In this document: positions 582-32,297 of the stretch, piece after piece
Position numbering within the stretch: position 1 is the first letter of the stretch
Layout: every line of letters begins with the position of its first letter
Assembly (NCBI GenBank): GCA_963544615.1
Contig: CAUUGB010000002.1
Span: 1-47,669 of the forward strand
DNA: 47,669 bases
Source of the DNA: an uncultured bacterium
Lineage (GTDB): Bacteria > Patescibacteriota > Microgenomatia > UBA1400 > PJMF01
Direction of reading: 5' to 3'
The notes under the pieces: model-generated
Database searches by the model: none
Seen by the model: only the letters and a program-made list of their open reading frames with translations
What the model was told of the DNA's origin: nothing
Made by a program: the position numbers and the translations under genes

Positions 582-2411
582 TTAGGGGGTTAAGCTAAAT
601 TCCAGATATAATCGACGTACTCCAGCCCCAGCACTGCCTTGTTTACTAATTTTAATGGGAGGAATTTCACCAGTATGTGTTACATGAGGTCCAGTGCAGA
701 TTTCTTGACTAACTTGACCAATTTGAAAAACGGTAACTTTATCGGGATAGCGAGCGGCAAAGCTGCTGCCACCCACCAAATCTAAGGCTTCTTTTTTGTC
801 ATATATTTGGTGACTAACTGGTAAATCTTGTTTAATCCAGTCATTGATTTGTTGCCCAATGGTATCTAATTGAACTGCACTTAAAGCCTGAGGAAAATTA
901 AAATCAAACCGAGCTCGCTCACTGGTAATATTAGAGCCTTTCTGTCTGATACTATCATCTAAATGTTTTCTTAAAGCTGCCAAAAGTAAGTGAGCCGCAG
1001 TGTGAAATTTAATTGTGTTATCTTGATGATCAGCTAAACCACTTTTGAATTTATGTTTTTCGCCACCTTTGGAGATTTGTTGGTGGTGTTTTTTAGCTGC
1101 TAGATAATCCTGGTAGTCAAGTTGTTGTCCGTTTTTGGCGGCTATTTCTTGGGTAATTTCCCAGGGAAAGCCATAGCTTTCATAAAGAAAAAAAGCTGTT
1201 TCACCGTCGAGAACGGCTGTTTTTTGCATGCGTTTGATGCCTTTTTCTAAAGTAGCTTGAAAATGGTTAACTTCTTTTTGCAAAATGCTAGTAATTTGCT
1301 GTTGTTTTTTGTTAATTTCTGGGTATGAATGAGCATAAAGTTGGCCAATAGTTGTGACTAAAGCAACTAGTTTGTCAGTTGACAGTTGCAACTCATGGCA
1401 CATTACGACACTGCGGCGAATTAGGCGGCGCAGCAAATATCCCTGCTCTTTATTACTGGGGGTAAGATTTTCACTCATTAACATCACACCAGAGCGCAGG
1501 TGATCGGCAATAATTCGCAAACAGCGCTGTTGCTCAGGGTGAGCACTGGCGTAATGAAGATTGGTGTTGGCAGTTAATTGCTGCATAATTGGGGCAAATA
1601 AACTAGTTTGAAACAAATCATTTTGATTTTCTACTGCCATTAAAGCTCGCTCTAAACCACCACCATAGTCAACGTTTTTGGCTGGCAAATTAACAAATTT
1701 ATCAATTTGTTTTTGATATTGCATAAACACACTGTTGCCAATTTCAATAAAGCGACCGCAATCGCAATTGGGGTGGCAAGGTTTTTTAGCCCAAACTGAA
1801 GCTTGATGGAGTCCCAGTTCACTGCCAAAATCATAAAATATTTCGCTGTCGGCTCCGCCCGGTTCATTGGGGGGCATTTTAGCTGGTGTACCAGAGCGGC
1901 TCCACCAATTTTTATCGTCACCATAGGTAAAAATACGCTCACCTAATTTGGCTGCTATGCCGTGTTTAGCAAAAATAGCTTGCCATAATTGAATAGCTTC
2001 ATCATCTCTTGGTAGAGAAAATTTTTTATTACCGGCATAAACGCTCACATAAAGTCTCTGGGGGTCTAAACCAAGCTCACTAGTAAAAAAATCAAACACC
2101 CAAGGCAATTGTTCTTTTTTAAAATAATCACCAAAAGACCAGTTGCCCAACATTTCAAAAAAAGTACTGTGACGAGCATCGCCAACTTCTTCAATATCAA
2201 CACTGCGAAAACATTTTTGACAGTTGCAAACGCGCTTGCCAGCAGGATGGGTTTGGCCTAAAAAATATGGTAAAAGTGGTTGCATGCCACTAGAAGTAAA
2301 CAGAGTAGAAGAGTCGTTTTCGGGAATTAAGGGTGCTCCGGTAATTACGCTGTGAGCACGATGTTTATAAAAATCTAAAAATTTTTGGCGAATTTTATCA
2401 ATGGTTTGCAT
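582..2411 (-). CDS. alaS: alanine--tRNA ligase (short form without C-Ala domain)
   Basis: Class II AlaRS core motifs (FTSSGMQP, FFEMLGNWSFGDYFK). Editing-domain motifs HTAAHLL and CTGPHV. At 609 aa it is well below the roughly 870 aa of canonical AlaRS. Confidence 0.95.
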   Translation of the reverse strand: MQTIDKIRQKFLDFYKHRAHSVITGAPLIPENDSSTLFTSSGMQPLLPYFLGQTHPAGKRVCNCQKCFRSVDIEEVGDARHSTFFEMLGNWSFGDYFKKEQLPWVFDFFTSELGLDPQRLYVSVYAGNKKFSLPRDDEAIQLWQAIFAKHGIAAKLGERIFTYGDDKNWWSRSGTPAKMPPNEPGGADSEIFYDFGSELGLHQASVWAKKPCHPNCDCGRFIEIGNSVFMQYQKQIDKFVNLPAKNVDYGGGLERALMAVENQNDLFQTSLFAPIMQQLTANTNLHYASAHPEQQRCLRIIADHLRSGVMLMSENLTPSNKEQGYLLRRLIRRSVVMCHELQLSTDKLVALVTTIGQLYAHSYPEINKKQQQITSILQKEVNHFQATLEKGIKRMQKTAVLDGETAFFLYESYGFPWEITQEIAAKNGQQLDYQDYLAAKKHHQQISKGGEKHKFKSGLADHQDNTIKFHTAAHLLLAALRKHLDDSIRQKGSNITSERARFDFNFPQALSAVQLDTIGQQINDWIKQDLPVSHQIYDKKEALDLVGGSSFAARYPDKVTVFQIGQVSQEICTGPHVTHTGEIPPIKISKQGSAGAGVRRLYLEFSLTP

Positions 2412-2420
2412 ATAACTTTT

Positions 2421-2495
2421 TGGAGCCCCCTACTGGTAACGCTCCAGTTCCTAGGGGTTACAAAACCCTTGTACTAACTTTTATACTAAGGGGGC
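2421..2495 (-). ncRNA. tRNA-like cloverleaf (Thr-UGU-like anticodon loop, non-canonical D and T loops) with encoded CCA, 9 nt upstream of alaS ATG
   Basis: Hand fold of the minus strand. Acceptor GCCCCCU/AGGGGGC, U8 A9, and D arm GUAU/GUAC with loop AAAAGUUA. Anticodon arm AGGGU/CCCCU with loop UUUGUAA, and variable region AGGA. T arm ACUGG/CCAGU (G53-C61 present) with loop AGCGUUA. Discriminator U, then CCA. G19 and the UUC of the T loop are absent. Confidence 0.5.
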
Positions 2496-2507
2496 TTTTA
2501 AGCTTTA

Positions 2508-2513
2508 ATTATA
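2508..2513 (-). promoter_or_regulatory. -10 box (TATAAT) for the tRNA-like element / alaS transcript
   Basis: The minus strand reads TATAAT 12 nt upstream of position 1 of the cloverleaf. A weak -35 (TTCGAT) lies about 17 nt further up and overlaps the divergent yvcK -10. Confidence 0.45.
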
Positions 2514-2542
2514 ACATTGCCTAGAGTATAATCGAAGACAGA

Positions 2543-3538
2543 GTGAAAAAAGTAGTCGTTATTGGTGGTGGTACTGGCACGGCAACAGTGCTGAGTTCTT
2601 TGGTAGGGGACGAAGAGTTAAGTTTAACAGGAATTGTTTCTATTGCCGATTCTGGTGGCTCTACTGGTAGACTACGTGATGAATTTGGTTTTATTCCGGT
2701 GGGTGATGTCAGGCAGTGTTTGGGAGCTTTGGCAGTGGGAGAAAATAGTAATTTGGTCAGAGAACTTTTGCTTTATCGGTTTCCTCAACAATCAAGTTTG
2801 GTAGGTCATAATTTGGGTAACTTAATTTTAACTGCTTTAACTGATTTATATCAAACTCCAGGTAAAGCTATTGAGGTAGCCAGCAAAATTCTTCGCCTCA
2901 AAGGGCAAGTTTTTCCCATTTCACAAACTCCAGCCGATTTAGTAATTGAATATAGCGATGGGAGCATGGTGGTGGGTGAAGATTATTTAAATTACCACCA
3001 GCATGGCGGCAAACAAATTAAGCGCATTAGTTTAAAGCAAAAACCAGCTATTTATCAGCGTGCCAAACAAGCTATTTTAGCTGCGGATTTAATTATTTTT
3101 GGACCGGGAGATTTGTATGCTAGTTTGCTACCTAATACCTTAGTGAGAGGTTTTAAGCCCACTTTGCGCCGGTCAGTGGCAACTTATGTTTATATTGCTA
3201 ATTTAATGACCAATTACGCTCAAACTCACTTAATGACTGCTCGTGACCATTTGCAAGAAGTCATTACTTATTCTGGGAGAGTGCCAGATTGGGTAGTCAT
3301 TAATCAGCAACCGATTAAAAATCAGCGCTTGGTTGCCAGTTACCAGCAGCAAGGTTCTAGTCCTTTAGTAGATGATTTGAGTTTTTTACCCTTTAAGATT
3401 AAAGTGTGTCGTGCCAATTTACTTGCTGCTACTCTAGCAGCGCAAAATAAAAATGATCAACTGGAGCGTAATTATTTGCGTCACCACGCTAAAAATTTAC
3501 ATCGAGTGATTAAAAATATTCTCAATGAAAAAAAGTAA
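2543..3538 (+). CDS. YvcK/CofD-family protein (UPF0052, gluconeogenesis factor-like)
   Basis: N-terminal VVVIGGGTGTATVL glycine loop and the SIADSGGSTGRLR motif typical of the CofD/YvcK family. GTG start 10 nt after TATAAT (2527..2532). Confidence 0.85.
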   Translation: MKKVVVIGGGTGTATVLSSLVGDEELSLTGIVSIADSGGSTGRLRDEFGFIPVGDVRQCLGALAVGENSNLVRELLLYRFPQQSSLVGHNLGNLILTALTDLYQTPGKAIEVASKILRLKGQVFPISQTPADLVIEYSDGSMVVGEDYLNYHQHGGKQIKRISLKQKPAIYQRAKQAILAADLIIFGPGDLYASLLPNTLVRGFKPTLRRSVATYVYIANLMTNYAQTHLMTARDHLQEVITYSGRVPDWVVINQQPIKNQRLVASYQQQGSSPLVDDLSFLPFKIKVCRANLLAATLAAQNKNDQLERNYLRHHAKNLHRVIKNILNEKK

Positions 3539-4909: not shown

Positions 4910-5812
4910 ATGTCAGTGACTACCCAATATGACTTAATTGCTCGCAATCAAAGACGCAGCGTGGTGGTAATTGCTTTTTTTGTCATTTTTGTTTCTTTAC
5001 TAGGTTTTTTGGCTTTACATGGTGGTTTGATTAATAGTCAGGAATTGTTATTTATTTCTCTAGGGAGTTTGCTTTGGTCGCTGGGAGCTTATTTTTTTTC
5101 TTCTCGGGTAATTTTAAGTTTCTCCCAAGCTAAAAAAGCCACTAAAAGTGAATTTTATCATTATTATACAGTGACAGAAAATCTTTGCTTGGGTGCTAAT
5201 ATGCCTATGCCTAAATTATACGTAATTGATGATCCAGCTTTGAATGCTTTCGCCACCGGCTTAAGCCCTCAAAGCGGAGTGATTTGTGTTACCACTGGAT
5301 TGTTGGCTAAGCTAGACCGCCATGAATTGGAAGCAGTTGTGGCTCACGAACTCTCACATATTCGCCATTTTGATATTCGTCTAGCCAGTTTAATTGCGGT
5401 AATTGGTGGAGCAGTTTTAATGCTGGTTGAAATTGTTTATCGCTCTAATTATTATGGCAGAAAAAAATCAAACAACCGGGACAATAACCCTATTTTGGCA
5501 CTAATATTTTTTGTTTTGGCAATTTTTGCCCCTTTAATTCTTAATCTTTTACAATTAGCTTTGTCGCGGCAAAGAGAATATTTGGCAGATGCTGGTAGCG
5601 CTCAGATGACCCGTAATCCTCAGGCTTTAATTAAGGCACTAAAAAAAATTAGCAGTGACCACACTCCACTGCAGCGAGCTAGTGCTGCTTTTAGCGAGAT
5701 GTATATTAGCGACCCCTTCAAAAAGAAAGACTTTTTAGCTAGAATTAGTCATCTCTTTTCTACCCATCCTAGCATCACTGAGCGGATTAAAGCATTAGAA
5801 AGCATTAGCTAA
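4910..5812 (+). CDS. htpX: HtpX-type M48 zinc metalloprotease
   Basis: HELSHIRHFD (HExxH) motif, multiple TM segments, and a C-terminal FSTHPSITERI motif typical of HtpX. TATAAT lies 7 nt upstream of the ATG. Confidence 0.9.
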   Translation: MSVTTQYDLIARNQRRSVVVIAFFVIFVSLLGFLALHGGLINSQELLFISLGSLLWSLGAYFFSSRVILSFSQAKKATKSEFYHYYTVTENLCLGANMPMPKLYVIDDPALNAFATGLSPQSGVICVTTGLLAKLDRHELEAVVAHELSHIRHFDIRLASLIAVIGGAVLMLVEIVYRSNYYGRKKSNNRDNNPILALIFFVLAIFAPLILNLLQLALSRQREYLADAGSAQMTRNPQALIKALKKISSDHTPLQRASAAFSEMYISDPFKKKDFLARISHLFSTHPSITERIKALESIS

Positions 5813-13646: not shown

Positions 13647-14972
13647 TCAAGAATGTTTCAATTTGAGAGCAGCAAATTTTTTTTGCATAGTCGGGTTAGC
13701 ACGCACTAATTTTTTAATAGTTAAATCTGCGGCTTTATTATTTGCCAAGCGCAAATTATTTTCTGAGGAAAGTAGTGCTTCTTTGGTTTTTTGTAAATGG
13801 CCAATAGTTTTGTCTATTTCCTCTATAGCAGTTTTAAATCTGTTGCTCGCAATTTGATAATTTTTGGCAAAAGCTTTCTTAAAAGAGAGCATATTTTCTT
13901 CAAAAGAAGTAATATCTAAATTTTGAGCTTTAATAAGAGCTAATTCCTTTTTGTATTGTAAAGATTTACTAGCAGCATTGCGTAAAATGCTAATTAGCGG
14001 GATAAAAAATTGCGGTCTAATAACGTACATTTTTTCAAAACGATAAGAAACATCAACAATGCCGGTGTTATAAAGCTCATTGTCAGTTTCTAGTAAAGAA
14101 ACTAAAACCGCGTATTCACAATTTTTTTCTCTACGGTCTTTATCTAATTCTTTCAAGAAATCTTCATTTTTTCTTTTGCAGGCAGTTTGATTGTTTTCAT
14201 TTTTCATCTCAAACATAATGCTGACTAACTCTAAATTTTGTTCATCATATTCGCGAAAAATATAATCTCCTTTACTACCAGTACGCGCATCGTTGTCTTT
14301 TTGAAAATAAGCGTGAGGAAAAGCAGTGGCACGCAGTTTATTAAATTCAATTTCGCAGTGTTGTTCTAAGCTTTCCCCCAACATTTTGGTGGAAAGCTTA
14401 GTTTTTAAGTCCTGATAATATGCAATCAAATCATCTTTGTTTTTGAGTTCCTGCTGAAATTTTTCTTTGAGTAAATTTTGGGCTAATTGTGCTTGAGCAC
14501 TGTTTTGTTCCAGTTGATGTTGCAATTGACTGCATTGTTTTTCAATTTGTTTTACCGATTGACTAATGGCAAGTTTTTTCTCGGCTTCACTGGTAGCTAA
14601 TTTGGCTTGCAATTTAACAATTTCATTATCTTTAGCTGCTAAATTTTTTTGCCAATTACTAGTTGCTTGAGCTTGGGCAAGTTGAATTGCTGCCTCTTTT
14701 TCTTTCTTGAGAGTGGCGATTTGACTAAGATATTGTTGTTGGTGTAATTGCTCTTCTAGTTGACTTTTTTCTTTTAGAGCTTGGGTAGCTTTAAGCAGTT
14801 TGGCATTAAAAGCCTGTTTTTTAATTGAAGCCACCACGCTTTTAATGGTGCTTTTGTCAATATCAATTTCGTGTAAACTATTTAAATCAATTAGATCGCC
14901 CTTAGCGCCGTCTTCTTGCAGTTGGAGCGTGTTTTCATCACGAATACTAACTTTTAGTTTTTTGCCCCTCAT
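13647..14972 (-). CDS. DUF2130-like protein (long coiled coil plus C-terminal PD-(D/E)xK-like domain)
   Basis: The N-terminal half is a Gln/Lys/Glu coiled coil. The C-terminal block ([38 protein letters not shown]) matches my recollection of DUF2130 proteins. The ATG lies 16 nt downstream of tRNA-Ser. Confidence 0.6.
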
Positions 14973-14988
14973 AATTTTAGTGCTCTAG

Positions 14989-15074
14989 CGGAGGTAGTGG
15001 GAGTCGAACCCACGAAGCCGTTGCCGGACTCACGCTTTCCAAGCGTGTGCAATTGACCACTATGCGATACCTCC
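14989..15074 (-). tRNA. tRNA-Ser (GGA)
   Basis: Acceptor GGAGGTA/TACCTCC, anticodon stem CACGC/GCGTG with loop TTGGAAA, a long variable arm, and T arm GTGGG-TTCGACT-CCCAC. Discriminator G. CCA is not encoded. Confidence 0.93.
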
Positions 15075-29680: not shown

Positions 29681-31072
29681 TTAACTGGAGAAAATAGCTT
29701 GATGGCGTCTTTTGACATGAGCTTTTTTACCAAAGCGATGGGCTTCATCACGCAGTTGCTCTAAAAGTTGTAAAGCCAAATTTTCACCACTCAAAGATAA
29801 TACTTGCCAGTCTATTTTTAGCTTATTAGTCAAACCAGCCAAGCTAACTTTTTGTGGTATCACTATGCGGTCGGGATCTTTAGCCAAACCAATCACAGGT
29901 ATCTTTTGCCAAGCAGTTTGCCACAGGGCGGTTAAAACAGCTCGTACTTGCCCTTTACCACCATCAATTAACAATAAATTTGGTTCTGGCCAATCACGGT
30001 GTTGACTGCGGCGCAACAGTGCTTCTTTTAACATGGCAAAATCATTGGGAGTGTCTAAAGTTTTAATATTAAAAAGTCGGTATGAGTTGGGGTCACTTAC
30101 TCCATTGGTAAAAACCACTTGAGAAACTACTGCTAGTTTACCACTGGTGTTACTCACATCATAAGCCTCAATTCTCTCTAGGGGATAAGCTTTGGGTAAA
30201 CTTAAATATTGGCGCAATAAACGCCGCAACATTAGCAGAGCTTGCTGACTTTTAATTTGATTAAGGTCGGGTAAATATAAATCATTTTTCAGCCGATAAT
30301 TTTTTTGGGTAATTTCTTTAATCATGACTAATTGATCACGCAGCCGGGCTGCTTTTTCAAATTCAGCCTCATTGGCTGCCTGCCACATTTGCTTTTTAAG
30401 ATTAGCACTTACCAAACTAGACTTGCCCGCTAAAAAATTTGCTAAGTTGGCAATTAGCTTGTGATAATCTGCGGCACTAATTTTACCCGTGCATACCCCA
30501 GGACAAAGTTGCAAATGATTTTCTAAACAACGACGCATATTTTTTTTTCTTGGCGCATTACACCAAGGTAAAATTGGACGAATTAATTTGAGAATTTGCT
30601 TAACTTTATAAGCAGAAGGAAAAGGACCAAAAATTTGACCTTGATATTTAATTTTATCTAAATTTCTTTTGCGCATCATTAACACTCGAGGGAATTTTTC
30701 TTTGGTTAAAAGAATATATAAGGGGCTTTTGTCATCTTTGAGTAAAGTATTGTATGGTGGTTGATGTAAATTAATCAATGCGGCCTCTACAAGGAGGGCT
30801 TGCAATTCACTCTCTAAGATTGCATAGTTAAGATAAACTGCCTTGCTAGTCATTTCGGCAATTTTTAAGGAAAGCTTAGTGTGCCTATAACTGTTAAGGC
30901 GATTTTTTAAGTTTTTGGCTTTCCCTACGTAGAGCACGCGCTTTTTTTCGTCTAGCCACCAATACACTCCCGGTTGTGATGGTAACTGCGCAAAGCAGTC
31001 CCATAAGCGCAAAGGCTGGGTAGGAGATGAGCAAACTTGGCATGACAATGGTTTGGATAAGTTTGTTTTCAT
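29681..31072 (-). CDS. uvrC: excinuclease ABC subunit C (short form, no C-terminal HhH2)
   Basis: GIY-YIG (GVYWWLDEKKRVLYVGKAKNLKNRLNSY), a UVR motif (FEKAARLRDQL), and an endonuclease V-like domain (IEAYDVSN). The true start may be the TTG at about 31012. Overlaps the upstream ORF. Confidence 0.85.
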   Translation of the reverse strand: MKTNLSKPLSCQVCSSPTQPLRLWDCFAQLPSQPGVYWWLDEKKRVLYVGKAKNLKNRLNSYRHTKLSLKIAEMTSKAVYLNYAILESELQALLVEAALINLHQPPYNTLLKDDKSPLYILLTKEKFPRVLMMRKRNLDKIKYQGQIFGPFPSAYKVKQILKLIRPILPWCNAPRKKNMRRCLENHLQLCPGVCTGKISAADYHKLIANLANFLAGKSSLVSANLKKQMWQAANEAEFEKAARLRDQLVMIKEITQKNYRLKNDLYLPDLNQIKSQQALLMLRRLLRQYLSLPKAYPLERIEAYDVSNTSGKLAVVSQVVFTNGVSDPNSYRLFNIKTLDTPNDFAMLKEALLRRSQHRDWPEPNLLLIDGGKGQVRAVLTALWQTAWQKIPVIGLAKDPDRIVIPQKVSLAGLTNKLKIDWQVLSLSGENLALQLLEQLRDEAHRFGKKAHVKRRHQAIFSS

Positions 31073-32297
31073 GACTGATAGTTAAGACTAATTCACTCTG
31101 TTGATAAGGCAGCCACCAAGATTCTGGAGTCAGTGCTGCTATTATAGCTAATTTTTGCCAACCTAAAAGAGAAATCTCTTCTAAAGGATAAATTATTTTG
31201 CCTTGTGCTCCTTGGGCTTGAAGTTGTAGCCTTAGTCCATTAATTTGTTTGGGGGAATTGTTAAATAAATTTATTTGATAATAATTTAAGATGGGGAAAA
31301 TGCCAAACTGGTGCAAATTTAAGTTGACTTGAATTTTTTCTTCTGGATTAAGATTGAAAATCTCATCAGGAATTTGTTCAATATGCCAAGCATTAAAATT
31401 CCCGCTTAAATAGGGAAAATAATTACTGGCTTGGAAATCTATGGTAGGATTTTTAATCACTAGATAACCTTGAGCATACAAATGAGTTTTTTGTCCTGCA
31501 CCCAATAAATAGTATGCTTGCCAAGTGTGGGCACTATTAAGTTTCCAAACTGTTGGTTCAGGGCTAATACTTTGATACCACACCGCTACCTCACCTGAGT
31601 CACTGGGAAATTGATAGGCACTGTAGGCAGCTGAATTAGCCTTATTTTCTATCACCCCCTCATAGGTAAACTGCAAATATTGTTCTTGACCATAAACCAG
31701 GCTAATAGTTTCACCCAAACTTTGATCAAATTCATACATTGCCTCCCCAGCTTTAACACTAGATTTTTGTACTTGATGAGAAAATTTTGGCACTCCCCAA
31801 CTAGTAGGCACACGCACTCTCAGGATATAGCTGGCAAAATGTTGGGCTTCACCTAAAGGAGGAATAGTAATAACTTTATTTTCACCTCGATTTTTAAGTA
31901 ATTGGTGGGCACTCATTTCCACATTAAAGTGGCGTTTTTTTCCTTGTCCAACTAAGTCATTGACAAAAGCTAATTCTACCAAAGTTTGCCCATTGGCTTC
32001 TTTAATATTTTTGTCAATTTCTTCTCCTTGAGGAACAACTACTAAGTTAGCTAAATTAGTTCCAGGAAAAACCAGCTGATAATTTTTAACATATTTAACC
32101 GGATTAGTGTTGGTGAGGGTAAATTGATAAACACCACTACTACTGCCAAGTGCAGCAAAAGTGAATTCTGCTACCACCTCACTGCGATAATTATCTGCCA
32201 ATTTGCCAGCAGCACTGGCAGGATTTTCTTGGGCGTAAATTGGCGGAGCAAAAAGACTTAAAAAGCCTAAAATAGCAACTATTTTTTTTATTTTCAT
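30894..32297 (-). CDS. secreted surface protein with C-terminal TM helix and basic tail
   Basis: Signal peptide (MKIKKIVAILGFLSLFAPPIYA) and a C-terminal AFALMGLLCAVTITTGSVLVARRKKA. The last 60 or so codons overlap uvrC in another frame. Confidence 0.6.
   Translation of the reverse strand: MKIKKIVAILGFLSLFAPPIYAQENPASAAGKLADNYRSEVVAEFTFAALGSSSGVYQFTLTNTNPVKYVKNYQLVFPGTNLANLVVVPQGEEIDKNIKEANGQTLVELAFVNDLVGQGKKRHFNVEMSAHQLLKNRGENKVITIPPLGEAQHFASYILRVRVPTSWGVPKFSHQVQKSSVKAGEAMYEFDQSLGETISLVYGQEQYLQFTYEGVIENKANSAAYSAYQFPSDSGEVAVWYQSISPEPTVWKLNSAHTWQAYYLLGAGQKTHLYAQGYLVIKNPTIDFQASNYFPYLSGNFNAWHIEQIPDEIFNLNPEEKIQVNLNLHQFGIFPILNYYQINLFNNSPKQINGLRLQLQAQGAQGKIIYPLEEISLLGWQKLAIIAALTPESWWLPYQQSELVLTISHENKLIQTIVMPSLLISYPAFALMGLLCAVTITTGSVLVARRKKARALRRESQKLKKSP

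Follow-up and report, generated by a model that had tools for sequence, protein, structure and literature searches.

A threonine tRNA gene of unusual structure next to alaS in a patescibacterial genome

The locus

The window, by which we mean the whole stretch of 47,669 nucleotides that was analysed, a complete contig, comes from an uncultured bacterium that its alanyl-tRNA synthetase (AlaRS) homologues and related contigs place among the Patescibacteria (CPR), near Microgenomates-type groups. The segment of interest lies on the minus strand and consists, from its 5' end, of an extended -10 element, TGtTATAAT (2508..2516), which its sequence and its counterparts in relatives mark as the probable promoter of a tRNA-alaS unit; a tRNA-Thr(UGU) gene of a variant-elbow class (2421..2495), recognised by ARAGORN, the Rfam model RF00005, its homologues and covariation within its family, with the tRNA body at 2424-2495 and an encoded CCA at 2421-2423; a 9-nt spacer, AAAAGUUAU, from the CCA to the alaS AUG (2412..2420), which by its sequence holds neither a Shine-Dalgarno motif nor a -10 element; and alaS (582..2411). 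On the plus strand, a divergent yvcK/cofD-like gene (2543..3538; TIGR01826) has a TATAAT of the leaderless type at 2527-2532. The product of alaS is a short alanine--tRNA ligase of 609 aa, which the first-pass annotation had named correctly (NCBIfam NF002436 at 573 bits, with the cutoff at 529). This enzyme ends after the editing / second additional domain and lacks the C-terminal C-Ala domain; all close AlaRS homologues in Patescibacteria are likewise short, at about 600-630 aa, and without C-Ala.

Structure, detection and identity of the tRNA

Positions 2495-2421, read on the minus strand (GCCCCCUUAGUAUAAAAGUUAGUACAAGGGUUUUGUAACCCCUAGGAACUGGAGCGUUACCAGUAGGGGGCUCCA), fold into a cloverleaf that the first-pass annotation had drawn from the letters alone, and each stem, loop, base and coordinate of that drawing holds against the sequence, as do the TATAAT that it placed 12 nt before position 1 and the alaS AUG that it placed 9 nt past the CCA. 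The acceptor stem consists of 7 bp, GCCCCCU (2495-2489) with AGGGGGC (2431-2425), and is followed by U8 and A9. The D arm is GUAU/GUAC with the loop AAAAGUUA; the anticodon arm, AGGGU/CCCCU, includes a U31-C39 mismatch and closes on the loop UUUGUAA (2458-2464), which holds U33, the anticodon UGU (2460..2462, minus strand) and A37; the variable region is 4 nt long; and the T arm, ACUGG/CCAGU with G53-C61, bears the loop AGCGUUA. The 3' end has the discriminator U at 2424, then CCA at 2423-2421. Most of these features are those of a canonical bacterial tRNA-Thr(UGU), namely the 7/4/5/5 cloverleaf with its 4-nt variable region, U8, A14, A21, U33, A37 and G53-C61, together with G1-C72, C2-G71, G35 and U36. 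The departures are the T-loop AGCGUUA, a D-loop with AG in place of GG, and the mismatch at 31-39.

Two of the kinds of detector that had been proposed for this region in the first-pass annotation recognise the gene: ARAGORN calls a tRNA-Thr(tgt) at 2421-2495(-), and the Rfam tRNA model RF00005, run with permissive filters on 2300-2620, scores it at 45.4 bits (E = 9e-9), where the gathering score is 29. The same model is silent on 2421-2495 when the whole window is scanned at Rfam default filters. The minimum free energy fold of 2421-2495 is the cloverleaf, with an energy (z = -1.84 relative to shuffled sequences) that is unremarkable alone; the weight of evidence for a tRNA lies with the covariance model and the homologues, as thermodynamics alone proves little. 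The three other tRNA genes in the window, for Ser-GGA, His-GUG and Leu-UAA, have D-loops with GG, GGUUCGA T-loops and scores of 57-67 bits, and only His-GUG has an encoded CCA. Since these three have ordinary loops, it is the tRNA-Thr that stands apart from the other tRNAs of its genome.

In E. coli, the identity set read by threonyl-tRNA synthetase (ThrRS) comprises G1-C72, C2-G71, G35 and U36. All of these are present in the window tRNA, and the two acceptor pairs, G1-C72 and C2-G71, are retained in 32 of the 35 members of the wider family described below; aminoacylation with threonine is predicted. The G3:U70 wobble pair that would mark a tRNA-Ala or a mimic cognate to AlaRS is absent, as had been reported before, with position 3:70 being C:G. 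The feature at 2421-2495(-) is thus a genuine threonine tRNA gene, ordinary in kind and an unusual variant in structure. Its identity as a tRNA, and the conservation, covariation, synteny and leaderless surroundings described in what follows, are direct observations.

Homologues and the locus in related Patescibacteria

The variant tRNA recurs in several related contigs, with much the same neighbours. In L081, whose AlaRS is 67% identical to that of the window, the tRNA body is identical and lies between cofD and alaS; its tail is U-CAG rather than U-CCA, and the alaS ATG follows 8 nt past the discriminator. The same order of cofD, tRNA and alaS is found in L200 and L106 (AlaRS 58%), with a 35-nt spacer to alaS and a tRNA that differs from that of the window at pairs 4:69 and 6:67 and by G5.U68. 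In L001 (AlaRS 61%) C4:G69 has become U4:A69; the tRNA there comes after a normal tRNA-Gln and ahead of yvcK/cofD, with 6 nt between the discriminator and the yvcK/cofD ATG, and alaS is found 3 kb away with a TATAAT of its own upstream. Three further contigs with AlaRS about 60% identical (L198, L202 and L203) have no tRNA close to alaS. The yvcK/cofD gene is accordingly a conserved neighbour of the variant tRNA, as judged by synteny in L081, L200, L106 and L001. A search for compensatory changes in relatives had been suggested at the outset, and such changes exist: within the CPR clade, acceptor pairs 4:69 and 6:67 (in L001 and L200/L106) have been altered on both sides. The UUUGUAA anticodon loop is the same in every CPR copy of the variant. 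The encoded CCA, which had been given a place in the title of the first-pass annotation, is present at 2423-2421 and is not conserved among the closest relatives.

These comparisons bear directly on a suggestion in the first-pass annotation that the cloverleaf might be a tRNA-mimic regulatory leader of alaS, comparable in principle to the E. coli thrS operator. In such a scheme AlaRS or another factor would bind the RNA and control translation or transcription, as at the thrS operator or with a T-box. The location invites such a suggestion, with the RNA directly 5' of a synthetase gene, on the same strand and 9 nt away, and with a like arrangement in L081 and L200. Against it, the RNA carries threonine identity, the anticodon UGU and C3:G70 rather than G3:U70; in L001 it precedes yvcK, and alaS there is without a leader of this kind; L198, L202 and L203 have alaS and no tRNA close by; the spacer to alaS varies from 8 to 35 nt; a canonical tRNA occupies the same slot in sister lineages (below); and other family members reside in phage-type tRNA arrays that are unrelated to alaS. 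Nor does Rfam recognise a T-box or any other leader family here: between 2300 and 2620 there is no T-box match at the gathering threshold or with E values up to 10, in agreement with the earlier statement that T-box sequence is lacking. The window RNA, moreover, is a complete tRNA, whereas the thrS operator is a mimic of an anticodon arm and the T-box a tRNA-binding riboswitch, and it differs from both in being neither cognate to the enzyme encoded downstream nor linked to the same gene in all relatives. The Thr-type acceptor stem and anticodon, taken with the loci of relatives, rule out a tRNA mimic specific to alaS, and we consider regulatory leaders of this general description very improbable. 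For annotation, the consequence is that a supposed regulatory RNA gives way to a plain tRNA gene.

Other relatives at a comparable distance (L199, L201, L204 and L205; AlaRS 58-61% identical to that of the window) carry a canonical tRNA-Thr(UGU), with AGCUCAGNUGGUAGAGC and GGUUCGAGUCC and a score of 68.6 bits, so that the window tRNA stands about 23 bits below its canonical positional counterpart. In all four, this canonical gene lies beside a gene for a left-handed-beta-helix (LbH) protein, and in L201 it shares a strand with alaS and lies 72 nt upstream of it. The variant carriers have the same LbH gene just past cofD. Because this gene is common to both types of carrier, the locus made up of LbH, (cofD), tRNA-Thr(UGU) and alaS can be regarded as homologous between them, and the window tRNA shares its chromosomal position with the canonical gene of sister lineages. 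None of the loci examined holds both forms of the tRNA. It appears that in some Patescibacteria the variant has displaced the canonical gene at the same locus. The two forms differ in all four stems, which makes a gradual conversion in place unlikely. Variant carriers are not monophyletic on a neighbour-joining tree of AlaRS, and this implies either more than one replacement or transfer, or a tree that is unreliable at such depth.

A wider family, mostly in tRNA arrays

The family was extended by scanning for the pattern TTTGTAA-N11-14-GGAGCGTTACC, which gave 92 matches in metagenomes and 23 in IMG/VR, and by retaining the sequences in which all four stems are paired, which left 35 distinct tRNA-Thr(UGU) sequences. 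The level of pairing (95%) and the invariance of the loops are partly built in by the pattern and the filter, including the UUUGUAA anticodon loop, which the pattern imposes on all metagenome members; the diversity of pair types is not. That diversity is considerable, with 2-6 pair types per variable stem position. When 25 members are given to RNAalifold, the cloverleaf emerges de novo, with compensatory double changes in 18 of its 20 pairs, and the tertiary pair 8-14 also covaries in the family, as U-A, A-U or U-G. An encoded CCA is found in 22 of the 35.

Most family members lie within arrays of 8-20 tRNA genes. Phage-type genes accompany them on several contigs: a large terminase in L185, homing endonucleases and thymidylate synthase in L085, and a phage-type DNA polymerase in L136. 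BLAST comparison of two family members with 50,697 GenBank phage records returned only weak partial matches, to a 735-kb uncultured phage and to Pelagibacter phage HTVC008M, and no named relative. The viral contig L185, which also carries the variant tRNA-Thr, has a group I intron (2841-3057(+); Rfam, 76.8 bits) between genes for an HNH endonuclease and the large terminase.

Phage and other mobile tRNA arrays are therefore one known setting with which the window gene can be compared, as the same variant Thr(UGU) family occurs there, in sets of 8-20 genes that mostly encode CCA. The window gene differs in that it stands singly on the chromosome, within a conserved neighbourhood of cellular genes, and is stable in several lineages of Patescibacteria; in its closest relatives the encoded CCA has been lost.

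Such tRNAs are easily overlooked. ARAGORN detects 19 of the 35 family members (contigs L085-L185), and six of those that it misses score 43-48 bits with Rfam, with others unreported in the same scan. Together with the failure of Rfam at default filters in our window, this indicates that tRNAs of the variant class are probably under-annotated, and flags a blind spot in tRNA detectors.

A proposed alternative elbow

In cytosolic elongator tRNAs, the G18-Psi55 and T54-A58 pairs are regarded as near-universal. The usual signature of the elbow where the D- and T-loops meet, G18 G19 with U54 U55 C56 ... A58, is missing from the window tRNA except for C56 and, probably, G19. Its T-loop (2437..2443, minus strand) reads A54 G55 C56 G57 U58 U59 A60 and replaces the usual UUCRANY, and its D-loop (2475..2482, minus strand) has no GG; comparison across the family leads us to take a conserved AG as A18 G19, since an internal AG occurs in every D-loop of the family. 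The AGCGUUA loop is shared by the 35 distinct Thr(UGU) tRNAs and, within phage arrays, by some of the tRNAs for Ile and Asn.

The 223 other distinct tRNAs that ARAGORN finds on the family contigs were not selected for their loops, and in these the elbow positions covary. With the position of the dinucleotide fixed relative to the end of the D-loop, tRNAs with U55 have GG at 18/19 in 118 instances and AG in 1, and those with G55 have GG in 2 and AG in 71 (Fisher p = 4e-49, relatedness ignored). The typical D-loop of the G55 class is AAYAGYA. Positions 54/58 are U/A in 193 of the array tRNAs, A/U in 18 and G/G in 5. A search of one ORF from L090 against PHROG gave no match; this contig is one of several with a GC content of about 0.6 (the others are L090's fellow metagenome contigs L097, L100, L112, L145, L158 and L168) in whose arrays G55 and A18 are found in all of the detected tRNAs.

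The coupling of G55 with A18 suggests a coherent alternative elbow, produced by coordinated substitutions rather than by decay. In the geometry that these covariations predict, an A18-G55 pair would apparently take the place of G18-Psi55, A54-U58 that of the reverse-Hoogsteen U54-A58 pair, and the outer pair G19-C56 would be retained; the window tRNA probably combines both swaps with an intact G19-C56. By analogy with established tRNA structure, such an elbow may still offer the stacking platform on which RNase P, the ribosome and other partners rely. Because AGCGUUA has no U54, U55 or A58, the enzymes TrmA, TruB and TrmI would be left without a target. If all of this is true, the elbow tolerates a different, covarying solution, tRNAs of this class cannot receive m5U54, Psi55 or m1A58, and they might escape nucleases and other factors that read the canonical T-loop.

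The loss of the near-universal G18G19 and T54-Psi55 signature, a score of 45 bits against 57-67 for the other tRNAs of the window, and the U31-C39 mismatch could each be seen as signs that the tRNA is a decaying pseudogene or was left behind by phage integration, or that the cloverleaf arose by chance. This view is already contradicted by a tRNA body that is identical, or altered only by compensatory changes in the acceptor stem, in relatives with AlaRS 57-67% identical, by deviant loops that are conserved and that covary across hundreds of tRNAs, and by a promoter conserved upstream, and we give it very little credence.

The term "mitochondrion-like", applied to this tRNA in the first-pass annotation, is misleading in that the D- and T-loops follow a conserved alternative pattern and are not degenerate. 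The tRNA does resemble tRNA-Pyl and the type II mitochondrial tRNAs in departing from the universal D-loop/T-loop signature, but these lose or shrink the loops and lose G19-C56 (PMC7609411), and the window tRNA keeps both. Normal loop sizes and coordinated substitutions suggest an elbow that has been preserved rather than lost. A review of non-canonical tRNAs names only tRNA-Pyl, tRNA-Sec and mitochondrial types (PMC7609411), and a non-exhaustive search of the literature yielded no account of bacterial or phage tRNAs with an elbow of the A18/G55 or A54/U58 kind.

Role in the cell

Demand for a tRNA-Thr(UGU) in this genome appears to be low, in that ACA (10%) and ACG (4%) together make up only 14% of the threonine codons in the coding regions of the window. 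The ACA share is the lowest of any NNA codon among the four-codon boxes, the others having NNA at 14-29%. Codon usage was also considered as a means of separating the two types of carrier and was set aside: ACA makes up 10-17% of threonine codons in variant carriers and 14-22% in canonical carriers, a small difference drawn from a single locus in each case.

As this is the slot that sister lineages fill with a canonical tRNA-Thr(UGU), the window tRNA is most likely the working tRNA-Thr(UGU) of the cell, and may be the only copy in the genome. We therefore favor, with a probability of roughly 80%, a functional elongator tRNA-Thr(UGU) with a rewired elbow, located in the slot of the canonical gene, probably serving as the working copy and probably sharing a transcript with alaS. 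It would read ACA, and ACG by wobble. This agrees with the first of three readings offered in the first-pass annotation, that of a divergent tRNA-Thr(UGU) gene transcribed together with alaS, a reading now supported by the detectors, threonine identity, compensatory changes and a covarying family.

An alternative, which we consider unlikely, is that the gene is an extra of phage origin beside a canonical tRNA-Thr(UGU) elsewhere in the genome, with a side role such as a back-up unseen by elbow-directed nucleases or modification enzymes of host or phage, or a donor of aminoacyl groups outside the ribosome. The cell-wall tRNA-Gly species of staphylococci lack T-Psi-C, and by analogy the G55-C56 T-loop of the window tRNA may be likened to theirs; the neighbouring yvcK is tied to the cell envelope, the family is found mainly in phage or mobile tRNA arrays, its carriers are patchy on the AlaRS tree, and the codons ACA and ACG are rare. 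Against this alternative, the gene shares a syntenic slot with the canonical gene of sister lineages, and no locus examined holds both; its sequence is very strongly conserved, with compensatory stem changes, across AlaRS identities of 57-67%; and in phage arrays the variant supplies Thr(UGU) within decoding sets that are otherwise complete.

Beyond this one gene, the elongator reading can be carried further, to a second self-consistent tRNA elbow (A18-G55, with or without the A54-U58 swap, and with G19-C56 kept) that is widespread in phage arrays and poorly detected, and that in some Patescibacteria has taken over the locus of the canonical tRNA-Thr(UGU) as the sole decoder of ACA and ACG. 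We offer this fuller proposal tentatively, as less likely than not. Its appeal is that an elbow abundant in phage arrays would here have become fixed in a cellular chromosome, at the locus of the canonical gene.

Transcription and the tRNA-then-ORF layout

The TATAAT at 2513-2508 lies 12 nt upstream of position 1 of the tRNA and is preceded by TG; a simple -35/-10 scan passed over this TGtTATAAT because it lacks a good -35. Relatives have a matching TATAAT 13 nt upstream of the tRNA in L081, upstream in L200, and before the tRNA-Gln in L001. The alaS gene, with its ATG at 2411, lacks both a promoter and a Shine-Dalgarno sequence of its own, the nearest promoter element being the one before the tRNA, and it is thus probably co-transcribed with the tRNA. 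Transcription would start from the TGtTATAAT, and once RNase P and 3'-end processing had freed the tRNA, a very short leader would remain on the alaS mRNA; this course of events is what the layout points to. Within the tRNA, at its positions 11-16, a TATAAA that resembles a -10 element could provide an alternative transcription start for alaS. The possibility that the 3' strand of the acceptor stem (AGGGGGC or AGGAGGC) serves the gene that follows as a Shine-Dalgarno sequence was considered and rejected, as its distance from the start codon is 8-14 nt at three loci and about 37 nt in L200.

Such a layout has to be seen in a genome in which, as had been stated earlier, most units of the window are leaderless: at least 10 first genes have a TATAAT 6-7 nt before the start codon, as at 4910, 15191, 16158, 17256, 24505, 34056 and 44695 on the plus strand and 33759 on the minus strand, and internal genes (e.g., 4344, 40932 and 36744) carry Shine-Dalgarno sequences of the GGAG type. 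The window holds a second unit in which a tRNA stands in the position of a leader, where, about 15 nt past tRNA-Ser(GGA) (14988-15074(-)), there begins a DUF2130 ORF (13647-14972(-), 441 aa) that also has neither a promoter nor a Shine-Dalgarno sequence of its own. The first-pass annotation had put forward, as another of its readings, a tRNA-like processing handle from which cleavage would release an almost leaderless alaS mRNA. The layout fits such processing, which is plausible, with a leader of 9-12 nt that is not strictly leaderless, but the RNA is a tRNA and not a dedicated handle.

The arrangement recalls the tRNA punctuation of mitochondrial transcripts, in which an ORF that lacks a promoter and a Shine-Dalgarno sequence likewise follows flush after a tRNA, and excision of the tRNA would make the 5' end of the mRNA, and it does so in a genome that is otherwise leaderless. 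It differs in being bacterial, in involving only some of the units, in its spacers of 6-35 nt, and in that processing is here deduced from the layout. This order of tRNA and then ORF, in a genome of leaderless units, suggests a part for tRNA processing in setting the 5' ends of mRNAs in these reduced bacteria. Elsewhere on the minus strand of the window, two long ORFs (29681-31072 and 30894-32297) overlap by 179 nt, which could reflect a frameshift, a start codon set wrongly or a true overlap.
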